In this document: positions 10,104-39,234 of the stretch, piece after piece
How positions within the stretch are numbered: the stretch's first letter is position 1
Layout: every line of letters begins with the position of its first letter
Origin: Clostridia bacterium
GTDB lineage: Bacteria > Bacillota > Clostridia > TANB77 > CAG-508
Length of the DNA stretch: 64,000 nucleotides
Direction: 5' to 3'
Assembly (NCBI GenBank): GCA_017934475.1
Contig: JAGBJN010000010.1
Span: 11,411-75,410, forward strand
Notes under the pieces: model-generated
Database searches by the model: none
Told to the model about the DNA's origin: nothing
The model's input: only the letters and a program-made list of their open reading frames with translations
Translations under genes and position numbers: made by a program

Positions 10104-10289
10104 TTACCCCTCTGATTCTTTTTTACGTTTATTGTCTTCGAACTCTCCAATAGCCTTCGATATCCAGAATAATAATAGTAGTGCGTGGATTGGGGCTAAC
10201 CCAAAAAGAGGAAAATTGATAATAAAACCAATTACAGTTCCAAGAAGAGTAGTAATTACTAAAATAATGAGGATAAGTTTATCAGTCAT
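10104..10289 (-). CDS. 61-aa two-helix membrane protein
   Basis: AAGGAG lies 7 nt before the internal ATG (MTDKLILIILVITTLLG...). The longer ORF start at 10310 would include the RBS. The overlapping + strand ORF lacks an RBS. Confidence 0.5.
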   Translation of the reverse strand: MTDKLILIILVITTLLGTVIGFIINFPLFGLAPIHALLLLFWISKAIGEFEDNKRKKESEG

Positions 10290-10461
10290 ATATGATCTCC
10301 TTTTAGACAATGATGTAAAAATGATTACATTAAACCAACGAGTTACATGATATATATTATAAAAAACGATATATACATAAAAATCTATTACTTATAATAG
10401 ACTATTGAATATATATTTTTTTATGATATAATTGATAATATTGTTAATAAGGAGGATAAAT

Positions 10462-10956
10462 ATGGAAGAATTTAACACAATAGAAAAATGTTTAGAATTA
10501 TTTAAATCAGTAAATTGTATAGGAAAAGAAAATTTAATTTTTTTCGCTTATAAAGATAATGCTAAAGCAACAGGACCATCTGTTATGGTTGGAGGAGCTG
10601 TAGGTGCATTTGCTAGTGGTATGGTAAATGGTGCAGAGCATCCATATGATGGATTACTAATTAATAAAACAGAAGATGGTATTGGAATGTTTATGATAAA
10701 ACAACCTGGAGTACCACTAACATATAAATTAGAAAAAATGGAATTACAAAAAGATAAATTTATTTTTTATAAAAATGAAGATATTAAAGAGATTAAAGTA
10801 AAAAAATTTGCTTTATTAAATAATAAAAAGAAAAGTATTTTCATAACAACAAATGATAAGAAAAAATATGTGTTATTTTCAGATGTTAATGAACCTAGAT
10901 TACCATATCATAATGATAATTTTTCTAAATTCATTGAAAAATATTCTGCAAAATAA
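10462..10956 (+). CDS. hypothetical protein
   Basis: AAGGAGG RBS, 164 aa, no motif recognised. Confidence 0.6.
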   Translation: MEEFNTIEKCLELFKSVNCIGKENLIFFAYKDNAKATGPSVMVGGAVGAFASGMVNGAEHPYDGLLINKTEDGIGMFMIKQPGVPLTYKLEKMELQKDKFIFYKNEDIKEIKVKKFALLNNKKKSIFITTNDKKKYVLFSDVNEPRLPYHNDNFSKFIEKYSAK

Positions 10957-11135
10957 AAGACAAATATTAGATTAAAGTTGTAAGATAAAAGTGGGCATAT
11001 AAAAATATTTCCACTTTTTTTTTATCCAACTTGTTTACAATATTACAACATATTACAAAAACATATATTTTTGTGGAAATTTTTAAATATATAAGTTATA
11101 ATATACATATATTTTTTTTTGAAAGGAGTATTTTA

Positions 11136-12704: not shown

Positions 12705-12791
12705 AAAAGGTAAGAAATTTTACTGTTTTGTAAATAAAGCTAAGAATGAAAAAGCACCTAGGAACTTAATCCTAGGTGTTTTAGTATGTAA

Positions 12792-13145
12792 TCAGTTTGT
12801 GGGAAGTACTTTCCAATCAACATCTTCATCTGCAGGGACAAAAGCTGTATGATTGCTACCAAGTATTAATGTGGTAGTATAGGAGAAAGGCTCTCCTTCT
12901 GCATTTGGCCCAGCATAAGATGGAACTTCTCCATCTTCATTTACCTCCCATTTTTTAAGCGGAAGCTTACGCCCTGTTAAATGGGCTTCTCTTTTGTATT
13001 TATCCCATTTATATTCATTATACATCATAGCACTCTGCCGTTCCTGAGCACATTTTGCACAAATCTTGGGGGAAAGATCTTCCATTGGGTGCCATAATTT
13101 GACACCTGTTTTACCACAAAAAATACATTTGTAATTTTCGTCCAT
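12792..13145 (-). CDS. hypothetical zinc-ribbon protein in a G+C-richer islet
   Basis: CIFCGK...CAKCAQ. AAGGAGGAT RBS. Composition differs visibly from the neighbouring genes. Confidence 0.6.
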   Translation of the reverse strand: MDENYKCIFCGKTGVKLWHPMEDLSPKICAKCAQERQSAMMYNEYKWDKYKREAHLTGRKLPLKKWEVNEDGEVPSYAGPNAEGEPFSYTTTLILGSNHTAFVPADEDVDWKVLPTN

Positions 13146-13276
13146 ATTTTATCCTCCTTATTGGATTTGTAAAAACTGAAAATATTATATCATGTTTTAC
13201 ATAATTTGACAAGACAGGTAAAAATTTGATATTATATTATGAGTAAAAAATATAAATATAAGAAAAGGAGGATATT

Positions 13277-14227
13277 ATGATTAAGATTTATAATACTGAT
13301 TTGCAAACAAATAAAACAGAAGAAAGTCAAGAATATAATAAAGGCGCATGGATTAATATGACAGCGCCGACAGATGATGAAATTAAAAAAGTTTGTAGTA
13401 AATTAAAAATAAGTGAAGATTTCTTAAAATATCCTCTAGATAGTGAAGAAAAAGCCAGAATTGATATAGATGAAGAAGAAAAAACAGTTTTATTTATAGT
13501 GGACGTACCTGTAATAGAAAAACAAGATAAAGAAAAAGTATATTCTACGATGCCACTTGGTATGCTTGTGGTAAGAGATGATTTTTTTGTTACAATAAGC
13601 TTAAAACAAAATAAAGTAATTTCTGACTTAGAAAAATTAAAAGATGTATGTACTTATAAAAAGAGTAGATTAATTTTACAAATATTTTATAAAAATGCAG
13701 AATTATATTTAAATAACTTAAAGAAAATAAATAAAGAAACGGAAGTAGCAGAAAGTGTTTTAAAATCTTCATTAAAGAATAAAGAATTACTAAAAATGCT
13801 TAGTTTGGAAAAAAGTTTGGTATATTTCACAACATCATTAAAAGCAAATGAAATAGTAATGGAGAAAACATTAAGGGGCAAAATAATTAAGTTATATGAT
13901 GAAGATGAAGATATATTAGAAGATGCAATCATTGAAAATAAGCAAGCTATTGAAATGTCAAAAATATATAGCGATATTTTAAATGGTACAATGGATGCAT
14001 ATGCATCAATTATTTCTAATAATTTAAATGGAGTAATGAAATTCTTAACATCAATAACAATTATTCTTGCAATTCCAACTATGATAGCAAGTTATTGGGG
14101 AATGAATGTTGATGTACCAATGCAATTTAGTCATAGTCCATGGGCATTTTATGTAGTAGTTGCAATATCTATAATACTTGGTTTAATTGCAATGATTTGG
14201 CTTAAGAAAAAAGATATGCTAGATTAA
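13277..14227 (+). CDS. corA: CorA-family magnesium/cobalt transporter
   Basis: 316 aa, two C-terminal TM helices with YWGMNV (GMN motif). Confidence 0.9.
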   Translation: MIKIYNTDLQTNKTEESQEYNKGAWINMTAPTDDEIKKVCSKLKISEDFLKYPLDSEEKARIDIDEEEKTVLFIVDVPVIEKQDKEKVYSTMPLGMLVVRDDFFVTISLKQNKVISDLEKLKDVCTYKKSRLILQIFYKNAELYLNNLKKINKETEVAESVLKSSLKNKELLKMLSLEKSLVYFTTSLKANEIVMEKTLRGKIIKLYDEDEDILEDAIIENKQAIEMSKIYSDILNGTMDAYASIISNNLNGVMKFLTSITIILAIPTMIASYWGMNVDVPMQFSHSPWAFYVVVAISIILGLIAMIWLKKKDMLD

Positions 14228-14288
14228 TGTATAAATATAAATATTTTGAATATAATAATGATGAGAATAAGAAAAAGGAGAAAAGATT

Positions 14289-14483
14289 ATGAAAATAATA
14301 GATATTATTGCTCTTATTTTAGTCATTGTTGGCGCTATAAACTGGGGATTAATAGGAATATTTAATTTTAACTTAGTAGAAACACTATTTGGTGGATTTT
14401 CTGTAATTAGTAGAATTGTATATATTCTAGTAGGAATTTCAGGATTATGGAGCATAAAAACCGTAGTAGAAAAATTATCATAA
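14289..14483 (+). CDS. DUF378 small membrane protein
   Basis: ALILVIVGAINWGLIGIFNFNLV is the typical DUF378 signature. Confidence 0.75.
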   Translation: MKIIDIIALILVIVGAINWGLIGIFNFNLVETLFGGFSVISRIVYILVGISGLWSIKTVVEKLS

Positions 14484-14487
14484 AAAA

Positions 14488-14512
14488 CAACCTCTTTGAG
14501 GTTGCTTTTTTT
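14488..14512 (+). terminator. intrinsic terminator
   Basis: Stem CAACCTC/GAGGTTG followed by CTTTTTTT. Confidence 0.65.
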
Positions 14513-14614
14513 ATTTGATTATTTTTGCTTTTCTCGTTTTCTATTAATAATAGTTGAAATATTTAGATAAATCATATATAATATTATAGATAAAAAAAAT
14601 AAGGAGGAAAATAA

Positions 14615-16195
14615 ATGTTAAATGCAATAGGAGTAACAATTAGATTTGGAAAAAGAACATTATTTGAAGATGTTAATATTAAATTCAATAAAAGTTGTTG
14701 CTATGGAATAATTGGTGCAAATGGTGCAGGAAAATCAACTTTCTTAAAAGTATTATCTGGAGAACTAGAACCAAGTAAGGGTGAAGTTACAAAGGAAAAA
14801 GGAGAAAGACTTTCAGTATTAAAACAAGACCACTTTGCATTTGAAGAATATACAGTAATTGATACTGTAATTATGGGAAATAAAGAATTATATGATATAA
14901 AACAAGAAAAAGATGCTATATATATGAAGCCAGACTTTAGCGAAGAAGATGGAATGAAAGCAGCAAAATTAGAAGAAAGATTTGCAGAACTAGATGGATG
15001 GAATGCTGAATCAGATGCAGCTCAACTTTTGAATGATTTGGGTATAGATACAGAAAAACATTATAAATTAATGAGTGAACTAGAAGCTAAAGAAAAGGTT
15101 AAAGTACTTTTAGCACAAGCGTTATTTGGAAATCCTGATATATTATTATTGGACGAGCCTACAAACGACTTAGATTTAAAAAGTATTGCATGGCTTGAAG
15201 AGTTTTTAATTAATTTTGAAAATACAGTAATAGTAGTATCACATGATAGATATTTCTTAAATAAAGTATGTACGCATATTTGTGATGTTGATTTTGGACA
15301 AATAAAAGTATATCCTGGAAACTACGATTTCTGGTATGAATCTAGCCAACTTTTATTAAAACAAATGAAAGAACAAAACAAGAAGAAAGAAGAAAAAATA
15401 AAAGAATTACAAGCATTTATTGCAAGATTTAGTGCTAATGCTTCAAAATCAAAACAAGCTACATCAAGAAAAAAATCATTAGAGAAAATAGAACTTGATG
15501 AAATAAAACCATCAAATAGAAGATACCCATATATTGATTTTAAACCAGATAGAGAACCTGGAAAAGAAATACTAAAAGTAAAAAATATTTCTAAAACAAT
15601 AAATGGTGAAAAAATATTAAATGATGTTTCATTTACAGTAAAAGAAAATGATAAAATAGCATTTTTAGCTGATAATGAAATAGCAAAAACAGTATTGTTC
15701 CAAATAATAGCTGGTGAATTAGAACCAGATGAAGGAAAAATAGAATGGGGAACAACAATTACAAATACATATTTTCCAAAAGATAATAACTATTTATTTG
15801 ATCAAGATTTATCTATAACAGATTGGCTTCGTCAATATTCTAAAGATCCAGATGAAACATATGTAAGAAGCTTCCTAGGAAGAATGTTATTCTCTGGTGA
15901 AGAAGCTTTAAAATATGTTAAAGTATTATCTGGTGGTGAAAAAGTAAGATGTGTTCTTTCAAAAATGATGTTATCTGGTGCAAATATGCTTATAATGGAT
16001 GAACCAACAAACCATTTAGATATGGAAAGTATAACAGCATTAAATGAAGGAATGAAGAAATTCAAAGGAAATATATTATTTACATCTCATGACCATCAAT
16101 TAACTGAAACAGTTGCAAATAGAATAATTGATATTAAATTAGATAAAGTGGTTGATAGAGAAGTAACATATAACGAATATTTAGGAATTGAATAA
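14615..16195 (+). CDS. ABC-F family ATPase (YbiT-like, two ABC domains, no TM domain)
   Basis: GANGAGKST, LSGGE, LLLDEPTN, and a second LSGGEKVR/MDEPTNHLD set, with a charged linker between the domains. Confidence 0.9.
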   Translation: MLNAIGVTIRFGKRTLFEDVNIKFNKSCCYGIIGANGAGKSTFLKVLSGELEPSKGEVTKEKGERLSVLKQDHFAFEEYTVIDTVIMGNKELYDIKQEKDAIYMKPDFSEEDGMKAAKLEERFAELDGWNAESDAAQLLNDLGIDTEKHYKLMSELEAKEKVKVLLAQALFGNPDILLLDEPTNDLDLKSIAWLEEFLINFENTVIVVSHDRYFLNKVCTHICDVDFGQIKVYPGNYDFWYESSQLLLKQMKEQNKKKEEKIKELQAFIARFSANASKSKQATSRKKSLEKIELDEIKPSNRRYPYIDFKPDREPGKEILKVKNISKTINGEKILNDVSFTVKENDKIAFLADNEIAKTVLFQIIAGELEPDEGKIEWGTTITNTYFPKDNNYLFDQDLSITDWLRQYSKDPDETYVRSFLGRMLFSGEEALKYVKVLSGGEKVRCVLSKMMLSGANMLIMDEPTNHLDMESITALNEGMKKFKGNILFTSHDHQLTETVANRIIDIKLDKVVDREVTYNEYLGIE

Positions 16196-16373: not shown

Positions 16374-16871
16374 GTGTTACCAAGCAATTTTTATAGTGAT
16401 ATAAGTAAAGTTTCTAATAGATTTGAGTTCGAAAAACATTTTAATTGGTTTATTCAAGTATTCGAATTAACTGATAAATCAAAAATGTTAAATAACAAAA
16501 AAATAAACAATTTACATCCAATAAGACCTAAAAAAGGTGAAATATATCTAATTGAATTTGGACAAAATGTTGGAAGTGAATTAAGTAATACACATATGGG
16601 AATAATAATTCAAGATTCAGCGAAAAATAATTATTCTAGTACAGTTATTGTAGTACCAATATCAAGCTCACCTAAAATATATGATACTCATGAGATTATA
16701 TTATTTGAAGATTTAAAAAATGGATACTTAAATAAATTACCATCAAAGGCTAAAGTAGAACAAATGATATGTGTAGATAAAGCAAGACTAATACATAGAA
16801 TTGGAGAATTGACGCCAGAGTTTATGAATAGGCTTGCAAGAAAAGTTTTAAAGGTTTTAGATATAAAATAA
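16374..16871 (+). CDS. MazF/PemK-fold endoribonuclease toxin homologue with an N-terminal extension of about 50 aa
   Basis: KKGEIYLIEFGQNVGSELSNTHMGIIIQ...VIVVPISS aligns by eye to the MazF/EndoA core. GTG start after AAAGGAG. Confidence 0.65.
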   Translation: MLPSNFYSDISKVSNRFEFEKHFNWFIQVFELTDKSKMLNNKKINNLHPIRPKKGEIYLIEFGQNVGSELSNTHMGIIIQDSAKNNYSSTVIVVPISSSPKIYDTHEIILFEDLKNGYLNKLPSKAKVEQMICVDKARLIHRIGELTPEFMNRLARKVLKVLDIK

Positions 16872-19379: not shown

Positions 19380-19490
19380 GTAATATATTAGAAACATAAA
19401 AAAGCCTGTATTTACAACTAAATACTCCTATGAAATAATATTATTTAATAAAAAAAATAAATAAATATATATATATATGAGGAGTATCCT

Positions 19491-22400
19491 ATGAAAAAAT
19501 CAGTTTTTGAGAAAATAATTAGTTTATTATTAACTATTATGATGGTATTAAGTTATGTGCCACCATTAATTTCTTATGCAGAAGGAGATAGTAATACTAG
19601 TGTACCTACATTAGTATCTACACAATATGAGACAAATGATACTGTTGTAGCAGACTATGTAATTAAACCAGCGGGTGATTCTTCAATAGATATGTATTCA
19701 ACTATTCAGGATACATTAAATGCTTGCTACGATCAAGGTGGTGGAACAGTATTTCTAGAGGAAGGAATATATTATATTTCAAGAAATATAACGATTCCAA
19801 AACTATGTACTTTAAGAGGTGATTATCAAGATCCGGACAAAAATACAGGAACACTAGAATATGGAACTATAATAGTTGCTGATGTAAATAACATTCAGTA
19901 TAGTTCTTCAGATATGGAAAGAACAGGACTATTTAATTTATCAAATAGTTCTGGAGTTATTGGAATAACTGTATATTATAAAAATCAATCTATAACAAAT
20001 CCAGTTGAGCAACCATGGACTTTCTATTATGGAAATAAAAATTTAATGACAATAAAAAACGTAACAATGATTAATAGTTACAGAGGAATAGGTAGATCAA
20101 CAGCAGATGGTGGAAGAGATGAACCAGAGCAAGTACATGAAATGTTAATGATTGAAAACGTTAAGGGTACAGTTCTAATGAAAGGAGTTGTACTTCATAA
20201 TTCATCAGATGTTGGAACAGTAACAGGTCTAAGTTTGCAACCAAATTATTGGTCAACTGCTAATTTATCTGCTTTAGGAGAAAGTGGAACAAAGCCATCA
20301 AGTGATACTATAATTTCAAAAATAAAATCAATGAATGGTAAAGGACTAATACTTACAGATATAGAACAACAACAATTTGCTAATATAACAATAGTTGGAT
20401 ATAAATATGGAGTTTATATTCCAAAAGATGATGGGGTAGAAGTAAAAATAAGAGCACATGGTAGTGGTTTGATGTATAATTTAAATATATCAAATTGTAA
20501 CTATGGAATAATGGCAGAGGATGGACATGAACTTGACTGGAGATGTGGATATTATATTACAAATTCATATATTGAAGGAAGTGAATATGCTCTATATAAC
20601 AAGGCTGTAAATCTTAACGGGAAAGCAGGAACTTTGCAATTAAATGATGTAACACTAAAAGGAAAAGTGGGAGGAACTGCACCTATTATATATTATTCAA
20701 AAGAAGCAGGAGACTATGTTTCAGTATATGATAAGGTAGGAAGCGGAAATGCTGACGGAATAATAAATAATACAGGAGATTTTTCAAACTTTAATTTAGA
20801 TAGAAAAACAAAAACTTATGGAAATAATTTTATGGCAATTGAAGCAGGAAGTTCAGCAAGTATAATAAATGCAGCTTTAGATTACGTTGGAAGCAATGGT
20901 GGAGGAGTAGTATACTTAAAATCAGGATTGTATGAAATAAATCAAACAATAGTTGTTCCAGAAAATACAGAATTAAGAGGTGTTTCAGGAGTATCATCTA
21001 GAATTGCTGGAACAGGGGAAAAATACGATACTGCAGGTAGTGTAATAGGAGGAGACTTGCTTGGTACAGTTATAAATGTAAAAACTACAAATTCATCAGC
21101 TGTTAATTTAAACGGTGATAATTCAGGAGTATCAGGAATTTTATTCGCATATGAAGATAATATAGAAAATGTTCAGAAAGCAAATTATGAATATTCATCA
21201 AATGAATGTACAATTATAAGTCATGGTAAAAAAGGAGTATACATCAAAAATGTAACAATTATAGGTTCTTCACATGGAATTGGTTTAGATAATTGTGATT
21301 ATTATACAATATCAAATTATGTTACAGGTGTATTTGAACAAGGAATATTAATAGTAGGCGGAAATAATGGTTTAATAGAAAACTGTTTACAAAATTCAAC
21401 AGTACTTTCACTTAATGGGTTATATGACTTTAATGGTGGTTATTTTGGAAATTTACTAGATATTACACATGATAAATTAATTAATATATATTTACAAAAT
21501 GCTAAGAATGTAGAAATGCTAAATACATTTGCATATGGGGCTAATAAATTTTTGGTTTCTATTGGATCAGAATCATATCTGATTAATTCAGGACTAGATG
21601 GTTATCCAGCATGGTTAGAGTATCAGAATGGAATAAATACAAGTATTAAATCTCCAAGATATATGTTTTATTTTGATGGAAATTCACGCTCTGATAGTAT
21701 GATAGTAAATGCTCTAAGAATTAATGGAACTTATGGTGTTTCTCAAGTAAATGGAGATTATGGTTCAAATAATGTAGGAATATATAATAGAGGAAGCCTT
21801 GGACCTAATAGAGGAAGTCTTCTTGAACCTGAATATGAAGGAGAGAGAGAAAACGACTTAAGAAGTGATATATTCAGAGCAGATGATTGGACTGTAAAAC
21901 AATATAACGATACCAAAATTGAAGCAAATACTGACTTCAGTGGTAGTTCTAATATGTTAAATGTAACTAATAAAAAAGATACACCTTATTACAGTGTAAA
22001 TACAGAAATAGATGAATTAAACTACAGTACTGTAGGAGGAACCTCAATACCAACAATTGAAGGAAGAGAAGAAGGAATATATACTGTATATTACTATATA
22101 CCAGAAACCAATGGCTATTATGAAAGAAAAGGAAGCGTAAGTGTTACAATTGAAGATATTGTAGAATTAGAAGCAACGGTAAGTTATAATCCAACAACTT
22201 TAACAAATCAAAATGTAACTGCAATAATTACGGCGAATAAAGAATTACAAGAAATAAGTGATTGGGTATTATCAACTGATAAGAAAAAGTTAACAAGGAC
22301 ATATAAAGGAAATGTAAGTGAGACGGTAACAATAACGGATTTAGCAGGAAACACAGAAAATGTAGAAATATCTATAACAAATATAGACAAAGAGCCACCA

Positions 22401-25400
22401 GCAGCAAATATTTTTTATAGTACAACCGAGTTAACAAATGAAGATGTAACTGTAAAGATTATAGCATATGAACCTTTACAAGATGTAGAAGGTTGGGAAA
22501 AATCAACTAATGGAAAAATATTAACAAGAACATATGACAGAAATACAGAAGAAACAGTAACAATAACGGATTTAGCAGGAAATACAGAAACTAAAACAAT
22601 ATCTATATCAAATATAGATAAAGAGTCACCAACGGCAAATGTAAGTTATAATATAACAAATCCTACTAATGATAAAGTAAAAGCAATAATAACAGCGTAT
22701 GAAGAAATTCAAGAAGTAGATGGATGGATATTATCAAGTAATAAAAAAATATTAACAAGAGAATATACAGAAAACACAACAGAGACAGTAACAATAAAAG
22801 ATTTAGCTGGAAATGAAACAACAGTAACAGTAAAAATAACAAACATAGACAAAGAAGCGCCAACAGCAAATGTTAGCTATAGTACATTAGAACCAACTAA
22901 TGGTAATGTAACAGCTACAATAACAATAAACGAAGAAATACAAAATGTAAATGGTTGGACAATATCAAGTAATGGAAAAGTATTAACAAGAGAATATGCA
23001 GCAAATGTAGAAGAAACAGTGACAATAAAGGATTTAGCTGGAAATACAACATTGGTTGAAATAAAAATTTCAAATATAAATAAAGAAGGACCAACAGCAA
23101 CAGTAAGTTATAATACTTTAGAATTAACGAATCAAAATGTTACAGTTACAATCACAGCTAATAAAGAATTACAAGATGTAAATGGCTGGACAAAATCAAA
23201 TGATGGAAAAGTACTAACAAAAGTATATACAGCAAATATAAGTGAAGAAGTAATTATTAAAGATTTAGTAGGAAATCAAACAACAGTAACAGTAACAATA
23301 ACAAATATAGATAAAGATGCACCTACAACAAGTATAAGTTATAGTAATTTAAATCCGACAAATGGAGATGTAACAGCAACAATCACATTAAACGAAGCAG
23401 TTCAAGAGGTAAAAGGTTGGACAAAATCGAGTGATGGAAAAGTATTAACAAAAGCATATACATCAAATGCTACTGAAATAGTAGTAATAAAAGACTTAGT
23501 AGGAAATCAAACAACAGTAACAATAACGATAACAAATATAGATAAAGAAGCACCTACAACAAGTATAAGTTATAGTACTATAAATCCAACAAATGGAGAT
23601 GTAACAGCAACAATCACATTAAATGAAGCAGTACAAGATGTAAGTGGCTGGACAAAATCGAGTGATGGGAAAGTATTAACAAAAGTGTATACATCAAATA
23701 CTACTGAAAGAGTAGTAATAAAAGACTTAGTAGGGAATCAAACAACAGTAACAATAACAATTTCAAATATAGATAAAGAAGCACCTACAATAAGCATAGA
23801 TTATAGTATTGTAGAACCAACAAATAGTAGTGTAACAGCAACAATAACAGCAAATGAAGAAATACAAAGCGTAACAGGTTGGTCATTATCAAACGATAAA
23901 AAGAAATTATCAAGGATATATACAGCAAATACAAATGAAACGATAGAAATAAAAGATTTAGTTGGAAATACTGTAACAGCAAAAATTATCATAAATAATA
24001 TAGATACAACTGCGCCAGTATTAAGTGTAAGTTATAGTACTACAGAGCCAACAAATGGAAATGTAACAGCAACAATAACAGCAAATGAAGAAGTACAAGA
24101 TGTAAATGGTTGGACAAAGTCAAGTGATGGAAAAGTATTAACAAAAACATATTCAAATAATGTATCTGGAGAAAAAGTTGTTGTAAAAGACTTGGTAGGA
24201 AATGAATCAACAGCAACAATAACAATTGCAAATATAGATACAGATGCACCAGTATTAAGCGTAAGTTATAGTACAACCAATATAACAAATCAAAATGTAA
24301 CAGCAACAATAACAGCAGATAAACAACTACAAGAAGTATTGGGATGGAACTTATCAAATGATAAAAAATCATTAACAAAAGAATATACAGAAAATATAAC
24401 AGAAACAGTAACAGTAACAGATTTAGTAGGAAATACATCAACAGTAACAGTAACAATAGGAAATATAGATAAAACTGCACCAACAGCAACAGTGAACTAT
24501 AGTACAACCAATATAACAAATCAAAATGTAACAGCAACAATCACAGCAGATGAACAATTACAAGAAGTTACAGGATGGAGTCTATCAGATGATAAAAAGG
24601 TATTAACAAGAACATATACTGAAAATGCAAATGAAAATGTAATAATAACAGACTTAGCAGGCAATAATACAAATGTTATAATATCAATAGTTAATATAGA
24701 TAAAGAAGCACCAATACTAAATGTAAGCTATAATCCAATAACAGCAACAAATGGAAATGTAACAGCAACAATAACATCAAATGAAGAAGTACAAGAGGTA
24801 ATTGGTTGGTCATTATCAAATGATAAGAAAATATTAACAAAAATATATTCAAATAACATATCTGGTGAAAAGGTTGTTGTAAAAGACTTAGTAGGAAATG
24901 AATCAACAGCAACAATAACTATAACAAATATAGACACAGATGCACCAATATTAAATGTAAGTTATAGTACAACAAATCCAACAAATCAAAATATAACAGC
25001 GACAATTACAGCCAATAAAGAACTACAAGAAGTTACAGGATGGAATTTATCAGATGATAAAAAAATACTAACAAAAGAATATACAGATAATACAACAGAG
25101 ATAGTAACAGTTATGGATTTAGTTGGTAATTCATCATCGGTAACAGTAACAATAGATAATATAGATAAAGAAGCACCTATACTAAATGTAAATTATAATC
25201 CAACGATAAGAACAAATGGAAATGTTGAAGTTACAATTATATCGAATGAACAATTACAACAAGTAGATAATTGGATATTATCAAATGATAAAAAAGAATT
25301 AACAAAAACATATACAGAAAATGTAGATGAGATAGTAATTGTTAAAGATTTAGCTGGAAACAGTACAGAAGTAAAAATTGTAATAAGTAATATAAAGAAA

Positions 25401-25664
25401 CCAAGCAAAGGCGATTTAAATGAAAATGAGCAAATAGATTTAGGAGATATTTTAATATTACAAAGACATATAGCTCAAACTAATTCAAGTGAAGTTGCAA
25501 GTAAACATTTAGATTGGAAATTATCTGAAGAAAAAATAAGAAAAGCAGACTTAAATAATAATGGAAAAGTGGATATTGGAGATATATTGATATTACAAAG
25601 ATACATAGCGGCCAATAATGATAATGATATTGCAGCAAAACATCCAGCTTGGTTAGAGATTTAA
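19491..25664 (+). CDS. 2057-aa secreted protein: two right-handed beta-helix (pectate-lyase-3-like) domains, 14 Ig-like repeats and a C-terminal dockerin
   Basis: Signal peptide. The motifs IQDTLNACYDQGGGTVFLEEGIYYI and IINAALDYVGSNGGGVVYLKSGLYEI are typical of PF12708-type beta-helices. The dockerin has two Ca-loop repeats, DLNENEQIDLGDILILQRHIA and DLNNNGKVDIGDILILQRYIA. Confidence 0.9.
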   Translation: MKKSVFEKIISLLLTIMMVLSYVPPLISYAEGDSNTSVPTLVSTQYETNDTVVADYVIKPAGDSSIDMYSTIQDTLNACYDQGGGTVFLEEGIYYISRNITIPKLCTLRGDYQDPDKNTGTLEYGTIIVADVNNIQYSSSDMERTGLFNLSNSSGVIGITVYYKNQSITNPVEQPWTFYYGNKNLMTIKNVTMINSYRGIGRSTADGGRDEPEQVHEMLMIENVKGTVLMKGVVLHNSSDVGTVTGLSLQPNYWSTANLSALGESGTKPSSDTIISKIKSMNGKGLILTDIEQQQFANITIVGYKYGVYIPKDDGVEVKIRAHGSGLMYNLNISNCNYGIMAEDGHELDWRCGYYITNSYIEGSEYALYNKAVNLNGKAGTLQLNDVTLKGKVGGTAPIIYYSKEAGDYVSVYDKVGSGNADGIINNTGDFSNFNLDRKTKTYGNNFMAIEAGSSASIINAALDYVGSNGGGVVYLKSGLYEINQTIVVPENTELRGVSGVSSRIAGTGEKYDTAGSVIGGDLLGTVINVKTTNSSAVNLNGDNSGVSGILFAYEDNIENVQKANYEYSSNECTIISHGKKGVYIKNVTIIGSSHGIGLDNCDYYTISNYVTGVFEQGILIVGGNNGLIENCLQNSTVLSLNGLYDFNGGYFGNLLDITHDKLINIYLQNAKNVEMLNTFAYGANKFLVSIGSESYLINSGLDGYPAWLEYQNGINTSIKSPRYMFYFDGNSRSDSMIVNALRINGTYGVSQVNGDYGSNNVGIYNRGSLGPNRGSLLEPEYEGERENDLRSDIFRADDWTVKQYNDTKIEANTDFSGSSNMLNVTNKKDTPYYSVNTEIDELNYSTVGGTSIPTIEGREEGIYTVYYYIPETNGYYERKGSVSVTIEDIVELEATVSYNPTTLTNQNVTAIITANKELQEISDWVLSTDKKKLTRTYKGNVSETVTITDLAGNTENVEISITNIDKEPPAANIFYSTTELTNEDVTVKIIAYEPLQDVEGWEKSTNGKILTRTYDRNTEETVTITDLAGNTETKTISISNIDKESPTANVSYNITNPTNDKVKAIITAYEEIQEVDGWILSSNKKILTREYTENTTETVTIKDLAGNETTVTVKITNIDKEAPTANVSYSTLEPTNGNVTATITINEEIQNVNGWTISSNGKVLTREYAANVEETVTIKDLAGNTTLVEIKISNINKEGPTATVSYNTLELTNQNVTVTITANKELQDVNGWTKSNDGKVLTKVYTANISEEVIIKDLVGNQTTVTVTITNIDKDAPTTSISYSNLNPTNGDVTATITLNEAVQEVKGWTKSSDGKVLTKAYTSNATEIVVIKDLVGNQTTVTITITNIDKEAPTTSISYSTINPTNGDVTATITLNEAVQDVSGWTKSSDGKVLTKVYTSNTTERVVIKDLVGNQTTVTITISNIDKEAPTISIDYSIVEPTNSSVTATITANEEIQSVTGWSLSNDKKKLSRIYTANTNETIEIKDLVGNTVTAKIIINNIDTTAPVLSVSYSTTEPTNGNVTATITANEEVQDVNGWTKSSDGKVLTKTYSNNVSGEKVVVKDLVGNESTATITIANIDTDAPVLSVSYSTTNITNQNVTATITADKQLQEVLGWNLSNDKKSLTKEYTENITETVTVTDLVGNTSTVTVTIGNIDKTAPTATVNYSTTNITNQNVTATITADEQLQEVTGWSLSDDKKVLTRTYTENANENVIITDLAGNNTNVIISIVNIDKEAPILNVSYNPITATNGNVTATITSNEEVQEVIGWSLSNDKKILTKIYSNNISGEKVVVKDLVGNESTATITITNIDTDAPILNVSYSTTNPTNQNITATITANKELQEVTGWNLSDDKKILTKEYTDNTTEIVTVMDLVGNSSSVTVTIDNIDKEAPILNVNYNPTIRTNGNVEVTIISNEQLQQVDNWILSNDKKELTKTYTENVDEIVIVKDLAGNSTEVKIVISNIKKPSKGDLNENEQIDLGDILILQRHIAQTNSSEVASKHLDWKLSEEKIRKADLNNNGKVDIGDILILQRYIAANNDNDIAAKHPAWLEI
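22170..25400 (+). repeat. 14 tandem coding repeats of 231-234 bp (77-78 aa)
   Basis: Unit consensus AP..NVSYS...PTN.NVTATITAN.ELQ.V.GW.LS.D.K.LTK.YT.N..E.V.V.DL.GN...V.V.I.NIDK. Units 6 and 7 are near-identical. Units 9-11 are mirrored by units 12-14 at an offset of 696 bp. Confidence 0.9.
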
Positions 25665-25813
25665 AACCAAAAGAAGGTTTATACTTATTTTATAAGTTAA
25701 ATCTTCTTTTTATTTTATTATTTTGCATTAACTTATTTAGATAAAAAAATATTGTAAAAAAAATATTTATGTTATAAAATTAAAACATAAAATAAATTTG
25801 GAAGGAAAAGAAG

Positions 25814-26629
25814 ATGAAAAACAAATTAATATCAAGTTTTTTAATAATATTTGTATTATTAAGTATATGCGGAATAAACAATATCTATGCAGATACAGCA
25901 ATTTGTGAATTTGATCCAAATGTCCCTAGTATAGTAGAACCAGGAAAAGAATTAATTATTCCAATTTTTTTGAAAAACATAACAGAAGGAATTTCAGGAG
26001 TTGGATTTACATTTAATTACAAAGATTCATTGTTTGATTTTGAAAGCGTAACAGCAGAGTCAGGGTGGACTGTGAGTAGAATAGAAAATTCATATACAAT
26101 ACTAACAGAAACACTAGAGTCAACAACAAATGCTGGAAAAATAGCAACAATAGTTTTAAAAGCAAAATCTACTATTAAAACTACAACAACAGAAACAGTA
26201 ACATTTACAGCAATAGAAACTTCTAAAGATGATGCAACAACAGTTAACTTAAATTCAATATCTAAAAATATAAGTATACAAGTAAGCAATAATGGAGAAA
26301 CAGAAGAAGATAATAATAATGAGAATACAATAGATGACGGAACAAGAAATGATAATAATAAAGAAAATACAACAGATGGTGAAACAAGAAATGATAATAA
26401 TAAAGAAAATACAACAGATGATGAAACAACAAATAATAATGATAACGAAAATACAACAAATGGTGGAACAAAAAATAATAATGATAACAAGAACACAACA
26501 AAAGATGAGGGAAAAACGGAAGGAAAAATTCCTCAAACAGGAGAAGAAAAAATTATAATATTTGCAGCAATTGCAGGATGTGTAGCGGTAGGAATAGCAA
26601 CATTTGTATTTTATAAGAAAACAAAATAA
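25814..26629 (+). CDS. cell-wall-anchored cohesin-domain protein with an LPXTG-like sorting signal
   Basis: Signal peptide. Cohesin-like module of about 140 aa (VEPGKELIIPIFLKNITEGISGVGFTFNYKDSLFDFESV...GKIATIVLKAK), an N/T/D-rich linker, then IPQTGEE, a TM segment and KKTK. Confidence 0.65.
   Translation: MKNKLISSFLIIFVLLSICGINNIYADTAICEFDPNVPSIVEPGKELIIPIFLKNITEGISGVGFTFNYKDSLFDFESVTAESGWTVSRIENSYTILTETLESTTNAGKIATIVLKAKSTIKTTTTETVTFTAIETSKDDATTVNLNSISKNISIQVSNNGETEEDNNNENTIDDGTRNDNNKENTTDGETRNDNNKENTTDDETTNNNDNENTTNGGTKNNNDNKNTTKDEGKTEGKIPQTGEEKIIIFAAIAGCVAVGIATFVFYKKTK
26342..26509 (+). repeat. 4 x 42-bp in-frame tandem repeat (14-aa N/T/D-rich linker units)
   Basis: The ACAAGAAATGATAATAATAAAGAAAATACAACAGATGGTGAA unit starts at 26342, 26384, 26426 and 26468. 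Confidence 0.75.
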
Positions 26630-26632: not shown

Positions 26633-26666
26633 AAATCCACATTTATTTAATTAAATGTGGATTTTT
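26633..26666. terminator. bidirectional intrinsic terminator
   Basis: Perfect 13-bp stem AAATCCACATTTA/TAAATGTGGATTT between convergent genes. Confidence 0.7.
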
Positions 26667-28633: not shown

Positions 28634-30268
28634 ATGAAACTAGCAATTATTTGTAGTTTAATTTTAAGCATTATACACTCTATTTTATTTTTTGGTGAGG
28701 ACTGGGGAATATCAGTATTATTATTTGCAATATCTGCAGTGTTTATATTTATATTCGTACTAGGTAAAAATGGAAAAATAAAGAAAAAATCACCATTAAT
28801 ACTTTCAGTTCCAATAATATTACTAAGTGCAACATACTTATTATTTAATAATATGTTTTTTGCAATAATGAACTTTTTTGTAATAATATCATTATTCTTA
28901 ATAATGATTATATGGGCTTGTACAGGTGAACTTAATCCAATTAAATTATTAAAAAATATGTGGATATTATTCTTTGCACCAGTTACAGAAATAGCAGAAG
29001 TTGCAAAAGAATTTTCAAATAACTTCCATGTTGAAAAAACACCTGGAAAAGCTAAAAATCCTATAGCATGGAAAATAGTAAAAGCATTATTAATTTCATT
29101 ACCAATTGTAATAATAGTTGTTGCTTTACTTGTTGCAGCAGATGATACATTTGGAGTAATATTTAAAGATATAGTAAATGCAATATTTAGTTGGATAAAT
29201 ATTGGAACAATATATAAATTTGCTATCAGAATAGTATTTGCAGTATTATTAACAATCTATTTTGTAGGCGCAATACTAAAAGTAACAAGAGGAAAAATAA
29301 ATAATGATGTAAAACCAGGTAGAAAAGGTTTAAGAATTGAGGGGATGACTTTAGGATTTCTTATTACTTTCTTAAATATAATTTATTTTATATTTACAGG
29401 AATCCAAGTTATGCATATAGTTCAGCAAATAAATGTAAGTGATATTACAAATTATGCAGGATATGCAAGAGAAGGATTCTTCCAACTAATGGTCGTATCA
29501 TTTATAAACTTTATTATAATACTTCTTTCAAAATTAAATAAGAAAGAAATGGGAGTAGGATCTAAATCTTACATAAAATCAATGAATTTTATACTAGCAT
29601 TATTTACAGTAGTATTACTTGTAACATCTGTTATAAAAATGACATTATATGCACAAGAATTTGGATATACATTCCTAAGAATACTTGTATTTGTTACACA
29701 AATAACAGAGTTATTATTAATACTTCCAACACTTGTATATATAATTAGTGATAAATTTAAAGTAGCAAAATGGTATTTAGGAATAATAGTAATAATGTAT
29801 GTATTATTTAACTTCATGAATGTAGATTACTTTATAGCTAAACAAAATATCGATAGATATTTAAATAATGAAAATGCACAGACAAGAAAATTAGATTTTG
29901 AATATTTAAGAAAACATACATCAGCAGATGCAATACCACAAATTACAAGACTTTTAAATGATAAAGATGAAAAATTACAAAGAGAAGTAAATAATTACTT
30001 ATATACACAAAAAGAAAATATAAATGAAAAAGAAATGACATGGCAATCATTTAATATATCTAGATTTATAGCAAAATTAGAATTAAATAAATATAATTTA
30101 GAATATAAATATTATAATAGTTATAATAATAGAAAAAATAATACGATATATGAGAAGGGTAATAATAATTATTATGATGATGACTATGACTACGACTATG
30201 ACTACGACTATGATTACGATGATTATTATAATAACAATTATTATTCAAATTATTATACAGATTTATAG
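28634..30268 (+). CDS. polytopic membrane protein (DUF4153/DUF4173-like) with a D/Y/N low-complexity tail
   Basis: About 12 hydrophobic segments. The family call is from memory only. Confidence 0.55.
   Translation: MKLAIICSLILSIIHSILFFGEDWGISVLLFAISAVFIFIFVLGKNGKIKKKSPLILSVPIILLSATYLLFNNMFFAIMNFFVIISLFLIMIIWACTGELNPIKLLKNMWILFFAPVTEIAEVAKEFSNNFHVEKTPGKAKNPIAWKIVKALLISLPIVIIVVALLVAADDTFGVIFKDIVNAIFSWINIGTIYKFAIRIVFAVLLTIYFVGAILKVTRGKINNDVKPGRKGLRIEGMTLGFLITFLNIIYFIFTGIQVMHIVQQINVSDITNYAGYAREGFFQLMVVSFINFIIILLSKLNKKEMGVGSKSYIKSMNFILALFTVVLLVTSVIKMTLYAQEFGYTFLRILVFVTQITELLLILPTLVYIISDKFKVAKWYLGIIVIMYVLFNFMNVDYFIAKQNIDRYLNNENAQTRKLDFEYLRKHTSADAIPQITRLLNDKDEKLQREVNNYLYTQKENINEKEMTWQSFNISRFIAKLELNKYNLEYKYYNSYNNRKNNTIYEKGNNNYYDDDYDYDYDYDYDYDDYYNNNYYSNYYTDL
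30176..30229 (+). repeat. GAYTAY hexanucleotide (Asp-Tyr) coding microsatellite
   Basis: gatgatgactatgactacgactatgactacgactatgattacgatgattat encodes DDDYDYDYDYDYDYDDY. Confidence 0.8.
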
Positions 30269-30324
30269 AAATAAGAATAATACCTCTAATATTGGTAAAA
30301 ATACCATTATTAGAGGTGTTTTTT

Positions 30325-31843
30325 ATGGATAAATCATTATGGATAAATTTAGGAATAGATAAAAAGAAAAATTATAATAAATTAGAAGGTGAACAAGAAG
30401 CGGAAATAGTAGTAATAGGCGGAGGATTGACAGGACTTACAACAGCATATTATTTGGCTAAAGAAGGAAGAAAAGTTATATTAGTAGAAAAAGATGAAAT
30501 ATGTAATCATACAAGTGGCAATACAACAGGAAAAATAACAAGTCAGCATGGATTATTTTACAATTACTTATTACAATCTAATGGGAGAAAAGAAGCAAAG
30601 CACTATTTAGAAGCAAATGAAGAGGCGATAAAAAATATAAAAAAAATAATAGATGATGAAAATATAGAATGTGATTTTGAATATCAAGATAATTATGTAT
30701 TTATACAAAAAGAAGAAGATATAGAAAAAATAAAGAAAGAACAAGAGGCTTTAGAATATTTAAGTTTTAATTCTGAACTAGTAAATGAAATAGAATTGCC
30801 AATAAAAAATACGAAAATGTTAGGAGCAATAAAATTTAAAAATCAGGCACAGTTTAATGCATATTTATATGGAATAGGACTAGCAGAATGCATAGAAAAA
30901 TATGGTGGTAAAATATATGAAAATACAAAAGTACTTGATGTAAAAAAAGAAAATGATAATTATGAAATAATAACAGAAGAAGGAAAAATTAATTGTAAAT
31001 TTATGGTTATCGCTACTCATTACCCTATAATAAATGCACCACGGATTTTATTTTATGAAAATGTATCAAGAAACTTCATATTTAATTACAATTGAAACAA
31101 AAGCACCATTATTTAATGGAATGTATATAAGTGAAGGTAATACTGAAACAATTTCATTTAGAACAACAAAAATGGGAGATAAAAGAGTAGTAATTATTGG
31201 AGGAATGCAGCATAAAACTGGTGCAAAAATAGATTTAAAGAACAGTTATAAAAGATTAGAAAATATAGCAAACGAAATATACCCTGGATCAAAAGTATTA
31301 TTTAGATGGAATACAGAAGATTGTATTACATTAGATAAAATTCCCTATATTGGTGAATTTTCAAATTTATGGCCCAATGTATATGTAGGTACAGGTTATA
31401 AAAAGTGGGGAATGACTAGTTCAAATGTTGCTGCAAATATCATAAAAGATAAAATATTAGGAATAGAAAATAAATATGAAGATGTATTTACTTCAACTAG
31501 AGTTAAACCTTTAAAAAATTATAAAGAATTTGGAAATATGTTAAAAGAAGTAGTTTATTCAGAAATATTAAATAAACTTAAAAATATTGATGAATATATA
31601 GAAGATGTAAAACAAGGAGAAGGAAAAATTATAGAAGTAGATGGAGAAAAAGTAGGTATTTATAGAGATAAAAATGGAAAAATATTTGCTGTAAAACCAT
31701 ATTGTAGTCACTTTGGTTGCGAATTATCATGGAATAATTTAGAAAATACATGGGATTGTCCTTGCCATGGATCAAGATTTACTTATGAAGGAAAATCGAT
31801 ATATGACCCATCTATAAAAGATTTAGAAAGAATAGATATTTAA
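30325..31843 (+). pseudogene. FAD-dependent oxidoreductase fused to a Rieske [2Fe-2S] domain (YhfW-like), interrupted by a frameshift near 31034-31045
   Basis: The N-terminal ORF has VVIGGGLTGLTTAYYLAKEGRKVILVEKD. The C-terminal ORF has GGMQHKTG and CSHFGCELSWN...CPCHGSRF. The reading ...HYPIINAP/GFYFMKMYQ continues only after a +1 shift. Confidence 0.7.
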
Positions 31844-33325: not shown

Positions 33326-33694
33326 TTATTCATCATATTGTTTTACTGTAAATCCACTTGTGCCTGTACCTGTAAACATATTGCTGTGATTTGATCCTGC
33401 TTTATATGTTGGTGTTTGTTCTACGTAAACTTTTGTTAAACTACTACTTTGACGGAGCATATTAGCACAATCTGAACAATTTGATAAATCAAGATGTCTA
33501 AAATCTATTGTATTAATTGATGAAAAACCAAACATTGCATTTGCATTATTTAAATTTGCTGTATTCCATTTACTTAAATCTAATTCTGTTAGATGATTAC
33601 ATCCATAGAACATTGATTTCATTGTTGTAACACTTGATGTATCAAAACTAGAAATGTTTAATGTACTTCCACCAAATTTACAAGTATAAAAAAA
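33326..33694 (-). pseudogene. 3' remnant of a DUF285/BspA-type leucine-rich-repeat surface protein
   Basis: Repeat signature SSFDTSSVTTMKSMFYGCNHLTELDLSKWNTANLNNANAMF. The frame is open upstream of the first ATG to a TAG at 33697-33695, with no RBS or N-terminal region. Confidence 0.6.
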
Positions 33695-39225: not shown

Positions 39226-39234
39226 TTTATCCCC

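Follow-up and report, generated by a model that had tools for sequence, protein, structure and literature searches.

The locus described here comprises two neighbouring genes on the forward strand of a 64-kb stretch of DNA, which was analysed as a whole and is termed ‘the window’ below. The first gene (19491..25664, +) is an open reading frame for a protein of 2057 amino acids, predicted to be secreted, in which two tandem beta-helices are followed by fourteen repeats of 77 residues and a C-terminal type I dockerin; orthologues of the same build are encoded at two related loci (L001 and L012). The second (25814..26629, +) is an open reading frame for a protein of 271 amino acids, in which a single cohesin is followed by a low-complexity linker and a sortase sorting signal. 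The host DNA is of low GC content (26% GC) and belongs to a gut or rumen Clostridia bacterium.

The two genes and the region between them

The large gene is preceded by a promoter-like site (TTTACA-17-AATAAT with a TG; 19411..19439, +) that scores 10/12 in a consensus scan; it is no more than a candidate, since DNA this rich in AT yields no more matches of this kind than chance would. Its product begins with a putative signal peptide (aa 1-30; 19491..19580, +), read from the sequence as a charged start, a hydrophobic core and an A-x-A-like site, with cleavage after SYA. Between the enzyme region (discussed below) and the repeats lies a segment of about 120 residues (21804..22166, +) that is modelled by AlphaFold2 at low confidence; a Pfam search of this segment returned no family match, and it is kept in the orthologues at L001 and L012.

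The repeat region (22167..25403, +) was detected by Tandem Repeats Finder as a 231-nt period in 13.6 copies, and was delimited into fourteen tandem units of 77-78 residues, with a mean identity of 58% (89% between units 6 and 7). The units probably form an Ig-like stalk: the Pfam families Big_13 and Big_3_2 match them weakly, and Big_3_2 reaches 31.9 bits on the same type of repeat at another locus (L015), while a profile of the repeats found no significant match among solved structures. The number of repeats varies, a strain variant having one extra 77-residue unit.

The protein ends in a dockerin (aa 1973-2057; 25407..25661, +) that belongs to an extended subtype of type I. The identity of this module is established by Dockerin_1 (PF00404; gathering score 22.9), which gives 36.5 bits (E 5.6e-9) for the full-length protein and 46.2 bits (E 5.4e-12) for the tail alone, by its resemblance to solved type I dockerins (4fl4 at E 6.4e-5, with the NagJ/NagH-system dockerin structure 2jnk also matching), and by an alignment of the subtype (A4) in which 40 columns are invariant among 5 loci. 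The two-segment dockerin reported in the initial annotation is therefore present, together with both of the calcium loops quoted there (25413-25448 and 25548-25583, +): DLNENEQIDLGD at aa 1975-1986, followed by ILILQRHIA, and DLNNNGKVDIGD at aa 2020-2031, followed by ILILQRYIA, each with D or N at positions 1, 3, 5, 9 and 12. The linker between them had been called unusually long, at about 38 residues. Unusual spacing there is (45 residues from first Asp to first Asp, versus approximately 33-34 where paralogous members of the family carry ordinary dockerins), because a tail of the form NS..[IV]A.KH..W is duplicated after each helix; the length itself has to be revised to 33 residues between the loops. 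A word-based search with a profile of the subtype returned 12 matches, mostly short fragments, and the range of cargo attached to it is under-sampled because assemblies break within the repeats.

The second gene has a ribosome-binding site, GGAAGGA (25800-25806, +), and its product carries a putative signal peptide (aa 1-26; 25814..25891, +; cleavage after IYA, as read from the sequence) and a cohesin module (aa 42-156; 25937..26281, +). A profile search for this cohesin had been named beforehand as a check that could refute the initial reading, and PF00963 recognised the module across aa 42-156 at 32.3 bits (cutoff 24.1). Judged by sequence, the cohesin of this protein is near the detection limit, and in the 66%-identical orthologue P0002 a Pfam cohesin match was absent at E 0.01; relatives at two other loci, L008 and L015, reach 46.4 bits and 37.7 bits, respectively, with PF00963. 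A profile of the cohesin subfamily matches solved type I cohesins, with 1g1k at E 9.7e-6 and with 2vn5, 4ums and 2jh2 also reached (range E 1e-5 to 1e-4), the last of these being the Clostridium perfringens NagJ cohesin at E 7.3e-5. Such matches to solved structures came from family profiles, both for this protein and for the first 900 residues of its large neighbour; single-sequence searches of solved structures returned nothing significant for either. When a fusion of cohesin, linker and dockerin was folded without an alignment (pLDDT 50.5, pTM 0.37), the low-confidence model showed about eight strands of at least three residues, compared with the nine strands of the beta-sandwich typical of cohesins.

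The cohesin is followed by a linker rich in N, T, D and E (26297..26508, +), in which Tandem Repeats Finder identified a 42-nt period; the composition and the 14-residue unit agree with those first proposed, and the number of copies becomes 5.0 (85% matches) rather than four. The C-terminus (26528..26626, +) consists of IPQTG, 21 hydrophobic residues and KKTK, and the original reading of these elements as a sorting signal is upheld by Gram_pos_anchor (PF00746; 21.6 bits, cutoff 20) and TIGR01167 (22.3 bits, cutoff 15.9). Cohesin-LPXTG anchors of this family form 621 clusters in metagenomes at E 1e-10 or better. Among the 148 listed representatives examined, at least 121 share the same build (signal peptide, one cohesin, linker and sortase signal), the median length is 274 residues, and 21 carry IPQTG.

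The two genes are separated by a stem-loop followed by a U-rich tract (25669..25724, +), a candidate intrinsic terminator or attenuator. The hairpin, which had been placed at about 25671-25712, is substantiated by its folding energy (delta G -16.6 kcal/mol, z -5.8, with 0 of 200 shuffles folding as well) and by its counterpart at L001 (-19.6 kcal/mol, z -4.9), where compensatory changes are found in the apical stem. Downstream of it lies a candidate promoter for the cohesin gene (25752..25780, +; 9/12 in the consensus scan), with a -35 box TTGTAA and an extended -10 element TGtTATAAA (25770-25778). The promoter-like TTGTAA-N17-TAAAAT of the initial annotation does occur; however, promoter-consensus matches are no commoner than chance in a window of 26% GC (59 found versus 52.4 expected), and the promoter is supported by the conservation of its boxes at the orthologous locus L001 (TTGTCA and TGgTATAAA), not by the consensus match. 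The two genes probably have separate promoters, split by the terminator-like hairpin, which suggests that they are not strictly co-expressed. Another terminator-like hairpin (26633..26664, with no strand assigned), found in a scan as a 13-bp stem followed by a T-run, lies between the convergent cohesin and HD-domain genes.

The twin beta-helix and the GH55 enzymes

The AlphaFold2 model of the catalytic region (pLDDT 85.9, pTM 0.89) consists of two tandem right-handed beta-helices in one chain, the first spanning approximately aa 39-416 (19605..20738, +; pLDDT mostly above 90) and the second approximately aa 446-771 (20826..21803, +). The two beta-helices of the initial description are borne out by the model and by precomputed PF12708 matches in most homologues of the region; their Pectate_lyase_3 type is not recognised above threshold on the protein itself, where PF12708 (Pectate_lyase_3 / Pect-lyase_RHGA_epim) reaches 20.5 bits in the first helix, against a gathering score of 27, and gives no Pfam match in the second. 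The twin-PF12708 family numbers more than 280 homologues, the closest of which often end in a dockerin, and acidic residues are invariant in both helix domains across it.

A likeness of this arrangement to GH55 had also been proposed. As the nearest solved relatives of the catalytic region, the GH55 beta-1,3-glucanases are supported by the model and by both profile and fold searches. A family profile of the region matches the GH55 structure 5m5z at E 1.3e-12, in an alignment that spans both helix caps and the domain junction; in a family-profile search the cap motif of the first helix resembles those of GH55, GH87 and AlgE, and the cap motif of the second (GGGVVYL..G.Y) agrees with the second domain of the GH55 structures 5m5z and 8jhh. 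Superpositions of the model on GH55 are the best obtained for the whole model (target-normalised TM 0.36-0.51, query-normalised TM 0.31-0.35, rmsd 12-14 Å), values that are low and yet the highest among two-domain matches. The predicted structure has in common with PcLam55A (3eqn), CtLam55 (5m5z), SacteLam55A (4pew) and MnLam55A (8jhh) the two tandem right-handed beta-helices in a single chain, with a PF12708-type cap opening each helix. However, the similarity is limited to the two caps and the junction, at a sequence identity of about 10%, and HMMER profiles of either the whole catalytic region or the second helix alone align the cap motifs with GH55 while leaving the catalytic Glu, which GH55 enzymes carry in the second helix, not alignable. 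With the alignment restricted to the caps and the junction, membership in GH55 is not established; it is probable that the protein represents a family of its own, yet to be classified, rather than GH55 proper. Fold and conservation, the basis of any functional reading here, make glycan cleavage the most probable activity of this N-terminal domain, which would then be an enzyme of an uncharacterised family akin to GH55. The initial suggestion that its target is a host, mucus or microbial glycan is conjectural.

Two-domain PL6 alginate lyases returned the best Foldseek E-values, yet were dropped as the closest architecture at TM values of 0.14-0.19. A viral fold library produced generic beta-helix and tailspike matches only, at low TM; a phage-depolymerase origin of the large gene was ruled out because the same chromosomal surroundings (Tex ... 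HD ... HtrA) are conserved around the gene in three genomes.

Related loci and a model of surface display

The pairing of the adjacent dockerin and cohesin genes finds support in comparative genomics. In five independent loci, a gene that ends in a dockerin stands directly 5' of a gene of the cohesin-anchor family, with a cargo that varies between a twin beta-helix and leucine-rich repeats. At L001 the pair is kept in the same gene context, with an anchor (P0002) that shares 66% identity in an alignment covering 58% of the query; at L008 and L022 an extended dockerin gene is directly upstream of a cohesin-LPXTG gene, the cargo at L008 being leucine-rich repeats; and at L019 an ordinary dockerin is directly upstream of a member of the anchor family. 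The anchor at L018 adjoins a BspA-type leucine-rich-repeat protein with 77-residue repeats. Adjacency is not obligatory, because at the syntenic locus L012 two paralogues with the same dockerin are found without any cohesin gene; in the sample that yielded this locus, an anchor of the same family adjoins another 77-residue-repeat protein. At L015 an anchor lies approximately 6 kb downstream of the nearest dockerin gene of the locus, where two dockerin genes carry the extended dockerin and a third, cut by the end of the locus, gives a faint Pfam dockerin match. Two more distant proteins, P0004 and P0005 (28% identity), give no Pfam cohesin match and are encoded on a conjugative element, with no dockerin gene beside them; they were not regarded as members of this system.

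The idea of a ‘self-contained’ pair, put forward in the initial annotation, probably does not hold in view of L012, L015 and L018, where two or three proteins with the extended dockerin subtype are present per visible anchor, or the anchor is absent at the locus; the anchor thus resembles a socket for display that several proteins share. That no cellulase or scaffoldin is visible was correctly noted, and neither of these, nor a sortase or a second dockerin, was found within the 64-kb window. The multi-cohesin scaffoldin with dockerin-bearing cellulases or hemicellulases that marks a cellulosome is absent from the window and from all related loci examined.

We read the locus as a non-cellulosomal cohesin-dockerin surface-display module, in which binding is inferred, and assign this reading a probability of roughly 70%. 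According to this model, the 271-residue protein would be secreted and cut by a sortase at IPQTG, which would link it covalently to peptidoglycan, and its low-complexity linker of about 80 residues would cross the wall and present one cohesin. The 2057-residue protein would be exported separately, and its calcium-dependent C-terminal dockerin would plug non-covalently into the cohesin of the anchor; the fourteen Ig-like repeats would then provide a stalk, tens of nanometres long, that keeps the twin beta-helix and its presumed glycan-cleaving activity off the cell. In related genomes the anchor would probably act as a general socket, serving several extended-dockerin proteins, including those with leucine-rich repeats.

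The two modules might instead not be cognate, with the dockerin binding a cohesin elsewhere (for example, on a multi-cohesin scaffoldin) and the anchor cohesin binding other dockerin proteins. Such an arrangement would be compatible with the fact that the visible part of the genome is 64 kb, with the same dockerin subtype at L012 and no cohesin in that locus, with the hairpin that divides the two genes, and with the behaviour of the R. bromii Sca2 cohesin, which binds several different dockerins (PMC4611034). We nevertheless consider it quite unlikely, given that in five independent loci, whose cargo differs, a dockerin gene stands directly 5' of the cohesin family, that an anchor of the same family lies beside another 77-residue-repeat protein in the sample of L012, and that none of the related loci showed a multi-cohesin protein. 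That recurrent genomic coupling would be hard to explain if the modules never interacted, the cohesin-like beta-sandwich being independent and the dockerin serving as a calcium-binding, stabilising tail. The cohesin lies just 8 bits above the Pfam cutoff, its single sequence matches no solved structure, and the single-sequence fusion model was uninformative; however, the subfamily profile matches bona fide dockerin-binding cohesins and the cohesins of relatives score 37.7-46.4 bits, and an absence of any interaction appears highly improbable.

A different question is whether the displayed protein is an enzyme. The twin beta-helix might be a binding or adhesin module within what would then be a long surface adhesin: the other cargo of the dockerin subtype consists of leucine-rich-repeat binding modules, beta-helix adhesins exist (PfbA, 4mr0, is among the fold matches), and catalytic residues could not be mapped onto GH55. 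Against this stand the Asp, Glu and Asn residues that are invariant in both helices among family sequences 31-42% identical, the PF12708 cap motifs, which are typical of glycosidases, lyases and epimerases, and the nearest structures, which are overwhelmingly glycan-cleaving enzymes; an adhesin is an unlikely alternative to an enzyme.

The surface-display module might also be one instance of something broader, a possibility that is advanced tentatively and held with less than even confidence: a distinct, widespread and undescribed cassette of gut and rumen Clostridia, in which a cohesin-LPXTG anchor of approximately 270 residues co-evolves with the extended dockerin (in which each repeat runs from a calcium loop through a helix to an NS..A.KH..W tail). 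The cassette would be swapped onto different long-stalked cargo, such as the uncharacterised twin beta-helix glycanase family or BspA/internalin-like leucine-rich repeats, and the length of the stalk would be adjusted as 77-residue repeats are gained and lost. If so, it would amount to a modular toolkit for meeting host, food or microbes tens of nanometres off the cell.

Comparison with known systems

The pairing of cohesins and dockerins is best known from cellulosomes and, to our knowledge, there are few examples beyond plant-fibre degradation, such as the R. bromii amylosome and the glycosidases of C. perfringens. In the NagJ/NagH system of the latter, cohesins and dockerins are borne by the enzymes themselves and link them together. 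That system is likewise a non-cellulosomal pairing in a low-GC Clostridium, where large glycoside hydrolases are involved; here, in contrast, the cohesin is carried by a dedicated small anchor protein.

The anchor may be likened to ScaE (Ruminococcus flavefaciens, R. champanellensis) and to Sca2 of R. bromii, cohesin proteins that are anchored by a sortase and bind dockerins carried by enzymes, a peptidase and leucine-rich-repeat proteins (PMC4611034). The likeness is one of build (the same signal peptide, single cohesin, linker and LPXTG-type signal), not of direct sequence comparison, the nearest solved cohesins being those of Clostridium cellulolyticum CipC and C. perfringens NagJ (E about 1e-5). 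The role assigned is also the same, namely the tethering of dockerin-bearing proteins to the wall, which for the present anchor is proposed from its gene neighbourhood. Sca2 binds the dockerins of amylases, of a peptidase and of a leucine-rich-repeat protein, and therefore acts as a display socket of general use in a setting other than cellulose degradation (PMC4611034). The system described here differs in its partner, a single giant extended-dockerin protein encoded next door rather than a set of amylases or a ScaB-type scaffoldin, and in its host, a Clostridia bacterium of 26% GC and no Ruminococcus.

That a two-gene cohesin-dockerin system can work alone follows from ClcC and ClcD of Cellulosilyticum lentocellum, which are encoded by adjacent cohesin and dockerin genes and were found experimentally to form a heterodimer (PMC13487519). 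ClcC, which is cell-free, has the build CBM3-X2-cohesin, its partner ClcD is a cellulase of family GH5, and their genes are predicted to be co-transcribed (PMC13487519). The present locus likewise has two adjacent genes, with the cohesin on one and the dockerin on the other; in contrast to ClcC and ClcD, the cohesin is predicted to be wall-anchored, the cargo is no cellulase, the dockerin gene comes first, and a hairpin and a candidate promoter lie between the genes.

The locus accordingly exemplifies, outside the cellulosome, an established mode of surface display, and the mechanism is not new; this example has an extended dockerin subtype and uncharacterised cargo. Small sortase-anchored cohesins constitute a large metagenomic family that is repeatedly encoded beside a presumed displayed protein, with a cargo that includes predicted non-cellulolytic enzymes as well as leucine-rich-repeat proteins, and the combination of a cohesin anchor and a dockerin protein is a two-protein system that is easy to test. 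The twin beta-helix family, with its more than 280 members, is a candidate for a new CAZy family, and the dockerin subtype, through its extended repeats, may represent a new group of binding specificity that could be employed as an orthogonal component in designer protein display.

Dockerin, cohesin and sorting signal in two neighboring genes

Two open reading frames on the same strand of this strongly AT-rich window (GC 0.21-0.31) encode the proteins considered here: a secreted product of 2057 aa (positions 19491-25664; ‘the large protein’) and a product of 271 aa (25814-26629; ‘the anchor’). The initial annotation ended the former in a canonical two-segment dockerin, and this assignment held: Pfam Dockerin_1 (gathering score 22.9) matches residues 1973-2039 at 36.5 bits (E 5.6e-9) within the whole protein and reaches 46.2 bits on the isolated C-terminal tail; the calcium loops that had been quoted were found, with Asp or Asn at positions 1, 3, 5, 9 and 12; and a search of solved structures pairs the tail with type I dockerins (4fl4, E 6.4e-5; CelS; Xyn10B). 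The cohesin proposed for the anchor was recognized by Pfam at residues 42-156 (32.3 bits versus a threshold of 24.1), so the refuting outcome named in the initial annotation, a profile search blind to this module, did not occur. The C-terminus of the anchor does consist, as described, of IPQTG, 21 hydrophobic residues and KKTK, with Gram_pos_anchor (Pfam, 21.6 bits versus 20) and TIGR01167 (NCBIfam, 22.3 versus 15.9) both above threshold. Its linker of short repeats required an amended count: the unit is 14 aa (42 nt), as stated, but is present in 5.0 copies rather than four.

The spacing of the two calcium loops, measured from first Asp to first Asp, is 45 aa in the large protein versus approximately 33-34 aa in ordinary dockerins, the kind that closes many paralogous members of this enzyme family. 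The added residues are no random linker. Each repeat unit consists of a loop, a helix and a tail that reads NS..[IV]A.KH..W, and this tail is present again after the second dockerin helix. Among five such ‘extended’ dockerins, drawn from four metagenomic sources, 40 of 85 alignment columns are invariant.

A word-indexed search returned only five relatives of the anchor; an exhaustive HMMER search returned 1958 clusters with E-values up to 1e-3, 621 of them at or below 1e-10. The family statistics were taken from the 148 representatives listed, which align end to end with a median length of 274 aa; at least 121 of these carry an LPXTG-like signal, including LPKTG (33), IPQTG (21) and LPQTG (20). 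A profile of the anchor’s subfamily matches solved type I cohesins (CipC 1g1k, E 9.7e-6), as well as the non-cellulosomal NagJ cohesin of C. perfringens. One distant protein (P0004, from loci L004 and L007; 259 aa, LPQTG, 28% identity to the anchor) has no Pfam cohesin match; its gene is located at the edge of a conjugative element with its own sortase, PrgI/TrbL/VirB4-like genes and an SpaA/TED adhesin, and its upstream neighbor encodes a polytopic membrane protein rather than a dockerin protein.

The hairpin previously placed between the two genes is present just past the stop codon of the large gene, as a stem-loop followed by a U-tract (-16.6 kcal/mol, z -5.8). A related locus, L001, retains it, and base changes in its apical stem are compensatory (-19.6 kcal/mol, z -4.9). 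The promoter-like site reported upstream of the cohesin gene fares less simply: its -35 box (TTGTAA in the window, TTGTCA in L001) and an extended -10 (TGnTATAAA) are both conserved, but the match to the promoter consensus is not by itself significant in DNA this rich in AT. The conserved hairpin and promoter boxes therefore suggest that the two genes probably have separate promoters, possibly with attenuated read-through from the large gene into that of the anchor.

A twin beta-helix and a probable stalk of variable length

The N-terminal region of the large protein (residues 32-880) has more than 280 homologues, almost all of them unnamed or ‘hypothetical’ proteins of uncultured Clostridia. 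The closest 40 or so end in a dockerin as a rule, with DUF4214 added in some. Two pectate-lyase-3-type beta-helices had been proposed for this region. PF12708 is found on most of the homologues, but on the large protein itself it remains below threshold and covers the first helix only (20.5 bits versus 27, Pfam). Both helices are nevertheless present, at approximately residues 39-416 and 446-771, in a confident AlphaFold2 model computed from a 56-sequence alignment (pLDDT 85.9, pTM 0.89).

The suggested resemblance to GH55 enzymes was borne out for architecture, though not for family membership. A profile of the cargo family matches GH55 beta-1,3-glucanases (5m5z, E 1.3e-12; also 3eqn and 8jhh), and GH55 structures provide the top whole-model superpositions in Foldseek (target-normalized TM 0.36-0.51), with two-domain PL6 lyases and phage tailspikes far below. 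However, alignment to GH55 is confined to the two PF12708 caps, one on each helix, and to the junction between the domains; whether a profile was built from the second helix or from the entire region, it never extended into the GH55 catalytic region. Because the similarity stops at the caps and junction, the cargo is GH55-like in architecture, and membership of that family is not established. Asp, Glu and Asn residues that are invariant in both helices, at pairwise identities of 31-42%, favor the view that the twin beta-helix is an enzyme. The invariant acidic positions are D36, D209, E261 and D672 in the numbering of the family alignments, to which approximately 31 is added for the full-length protein.

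Between this region and the dockerin, residues 893-1971 form a probable stalk of fourteen repeats of 77-78 aa (mean identity 58%), of which repeats 6 and 7 are 89% identical. These repeats weakly match the Ig-like Pfam families Big_13 and Big_3_2, the latter of which is above threshold (31.9 bits) on the same repeat type in another locus, L015; sequence searches found no solved relative. Comparison with a strain variant of 2134 aa in the large protein’s own 90% cluster (members P0318 and P0319) reveals that the repeat region (window positions 22167-25403) is polymorphic in copy number: the variant differs by exactly one added 77-aa repeat, which follows residue 1353 and separates the most similar pair of units, and by one substitution elsewhere. 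Two relatives of the same build (75% and approximately 48% identical in the catalytic region) have about five to six repeats each. Stalk length is therefore evolutionarily labile.

Gene pairing and a proposed mechanism of surface display

Related loci from rumen and gut metagenomes repeatedly place an anchor-family gene beside a dockerin gene. L001 and L002 have the same gene order as the window (Tex, large protein, cohesin, HD gene, HtrA-like gene), with a large protein of 1360 aa of the same build and with the same dockerin, and an anchor with 66% identity across the aligned stretch, which makes up 58% of the query. In a rumen MAG (L008), the gene for a 251-aa cohesin-LPKTG protein (Cohesin, 46.4 bits) directly follows that for a 1234-aa protein with LRR_4, LRR_8 and EndoS-type leucine-rich repeats and a terminal extended dockerin. 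In L022, the gene immediately upstream of the anchor-family member encodes a protein that terminates in 77-aa repeats and the extended dockerin; in L019, the preceding gene has a terminal ordinary dockerin. At L015, a 278-aa cohesin-LPKTG protein is encoded approximately 6 kb downstream of the nearest dockerin gene; two extended-dockerin genes were read there, one encoding 13 stalk repeats plus a wall-binding repeat resembling pneumococcal ones and the other BspA-type leucine-rich repeats, and a third gene, cut by the end of the locus, has no more than a faint Pfam dockerin match. The syntenic locus L012 has no cohesin gene beside its two tandem twin-beta-helix paralogues with repeats and extended dockerins (positions 6001-15214; 1447 and 1609 aa), an arrangement that shows gene duplication within the locus of a related genome; in the same sample, an IPQTG anchor of the family adjoins a BspA-type leucine-rich-repeat protein with 77-aa repeats. 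Thus, anchor and dockerin genes are often, though not always, adjacent. Several dockerin proteins probably share one anchor, so the description of the pair as ‘self-contained’ is doubtful. No cellulase or scaffoldin was found within the 64-kb window, in agreement with the initial annotation, nor was a second dockerin or a sortase gene.

Alongside the demonstrated domain identities, catalytic-region fold, gene coupling and repeat variability, we assign a probability of about 0.7 to a mechanism of cohesin-dockerin surface display. A sortase would join the anchor to peptidoglycan at IPQTG; the acidic, polar linker of approximately 80 aa would cross the wall; the cohesin would take up the calcium-loaded dockerin of the large protein; and the 14-repeat stalk would keep the twin beta-helix, which probably cleaves glycans, well away from the cell. 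A model of a cohesin-dockerin fusion, computed from a single sequence without an alignment, was uninformative, with a pLDDT of 50.5 and a pTM of 0.37.

Sortase-anchored proteins with a single cohesin are established, among them ScaE of R. flavefaciens and Sca2 of R. bromii; the dockerin partners of Sca2 are amylases, a peptidase and a leucine-rich-repeat protein (PMC4611034). LPXTG ‘non-SLH anchoring scaffoldins’ have been catalogued, as have scaffoldins of non-cellulolytic bacteria (PMC11557425), and in C. lentocellum the products of an adjacent cohesin-dockerin gene pair have been demonstrated to form a complex (PMC13487519). Because both sortase-anchored cohesins and an adjacent two-gene pair are already on record, the window pair belongs to a known kind of system; what is new lies in the detail: a dockerin subtype of extended form, cargo from an uncharacterized twin beta-helix family, a stalk that varies in length and anchor genes placed recurrently beside those of the cargo.

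Other features of the window

Just upstream of the dockerin locus, a PemK/MazF-type toxin gene (16374-16871, plus strand) separates the genes for ABC-F and Tex. In L001 its place is taken by a Y1 transposase, and in L012 by a different set of three small genes, so this is a variable insertion site. Type IV secretion genes at the start of the window (1-2707, minus strand; a TrwB/TraG-like coupling protein and a sub-threshold pilin-like ORF) could mark the edge of a conjugative element or what is left of one. At the other end, a tRNA gene (57531-57603) precedes a phage-type integrase (57841-59034, minus strand), beyond which the genes up to position 64000 resemble, by eye, an HTH regulator and a mobilization/relaxase gene; the stretch from 57531 to 64000 is probably a mobile element inserted at the tRNA.

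Overlapping ORFs for an FAD oxidoreductase (DAO; 30292-31095) and a Rieske domain (31034-31843), both on the plus strand, correspond to a single 505-aa DAO-Rieske gene in L001 (12754-14271), and the split probably reflects a frameshift, pseudogene or sequencing error. The C-terminus of a DUF4153 membrane protein (28634-30268, plus strand) is an unusual low-complexity stretch in which Tyr, Asp and Asn abound (..DDDYDYDYDYDYDDYYNNNYY..). An isolated 98-aa ORF matching DUF285, a BspA-like leucine-rich repeat (33326-33622, minus strand), appears to be a piece of a longer gene for a surface protein. Finally, a minus-strand cluster (37500-41893) of two GT8 glycosyltransferase genes and two acyltransferase genes, with another acyltransferase fused to one of the GT8 genes, is a possible cell-envelope glycolipid or glycopolymer locus.
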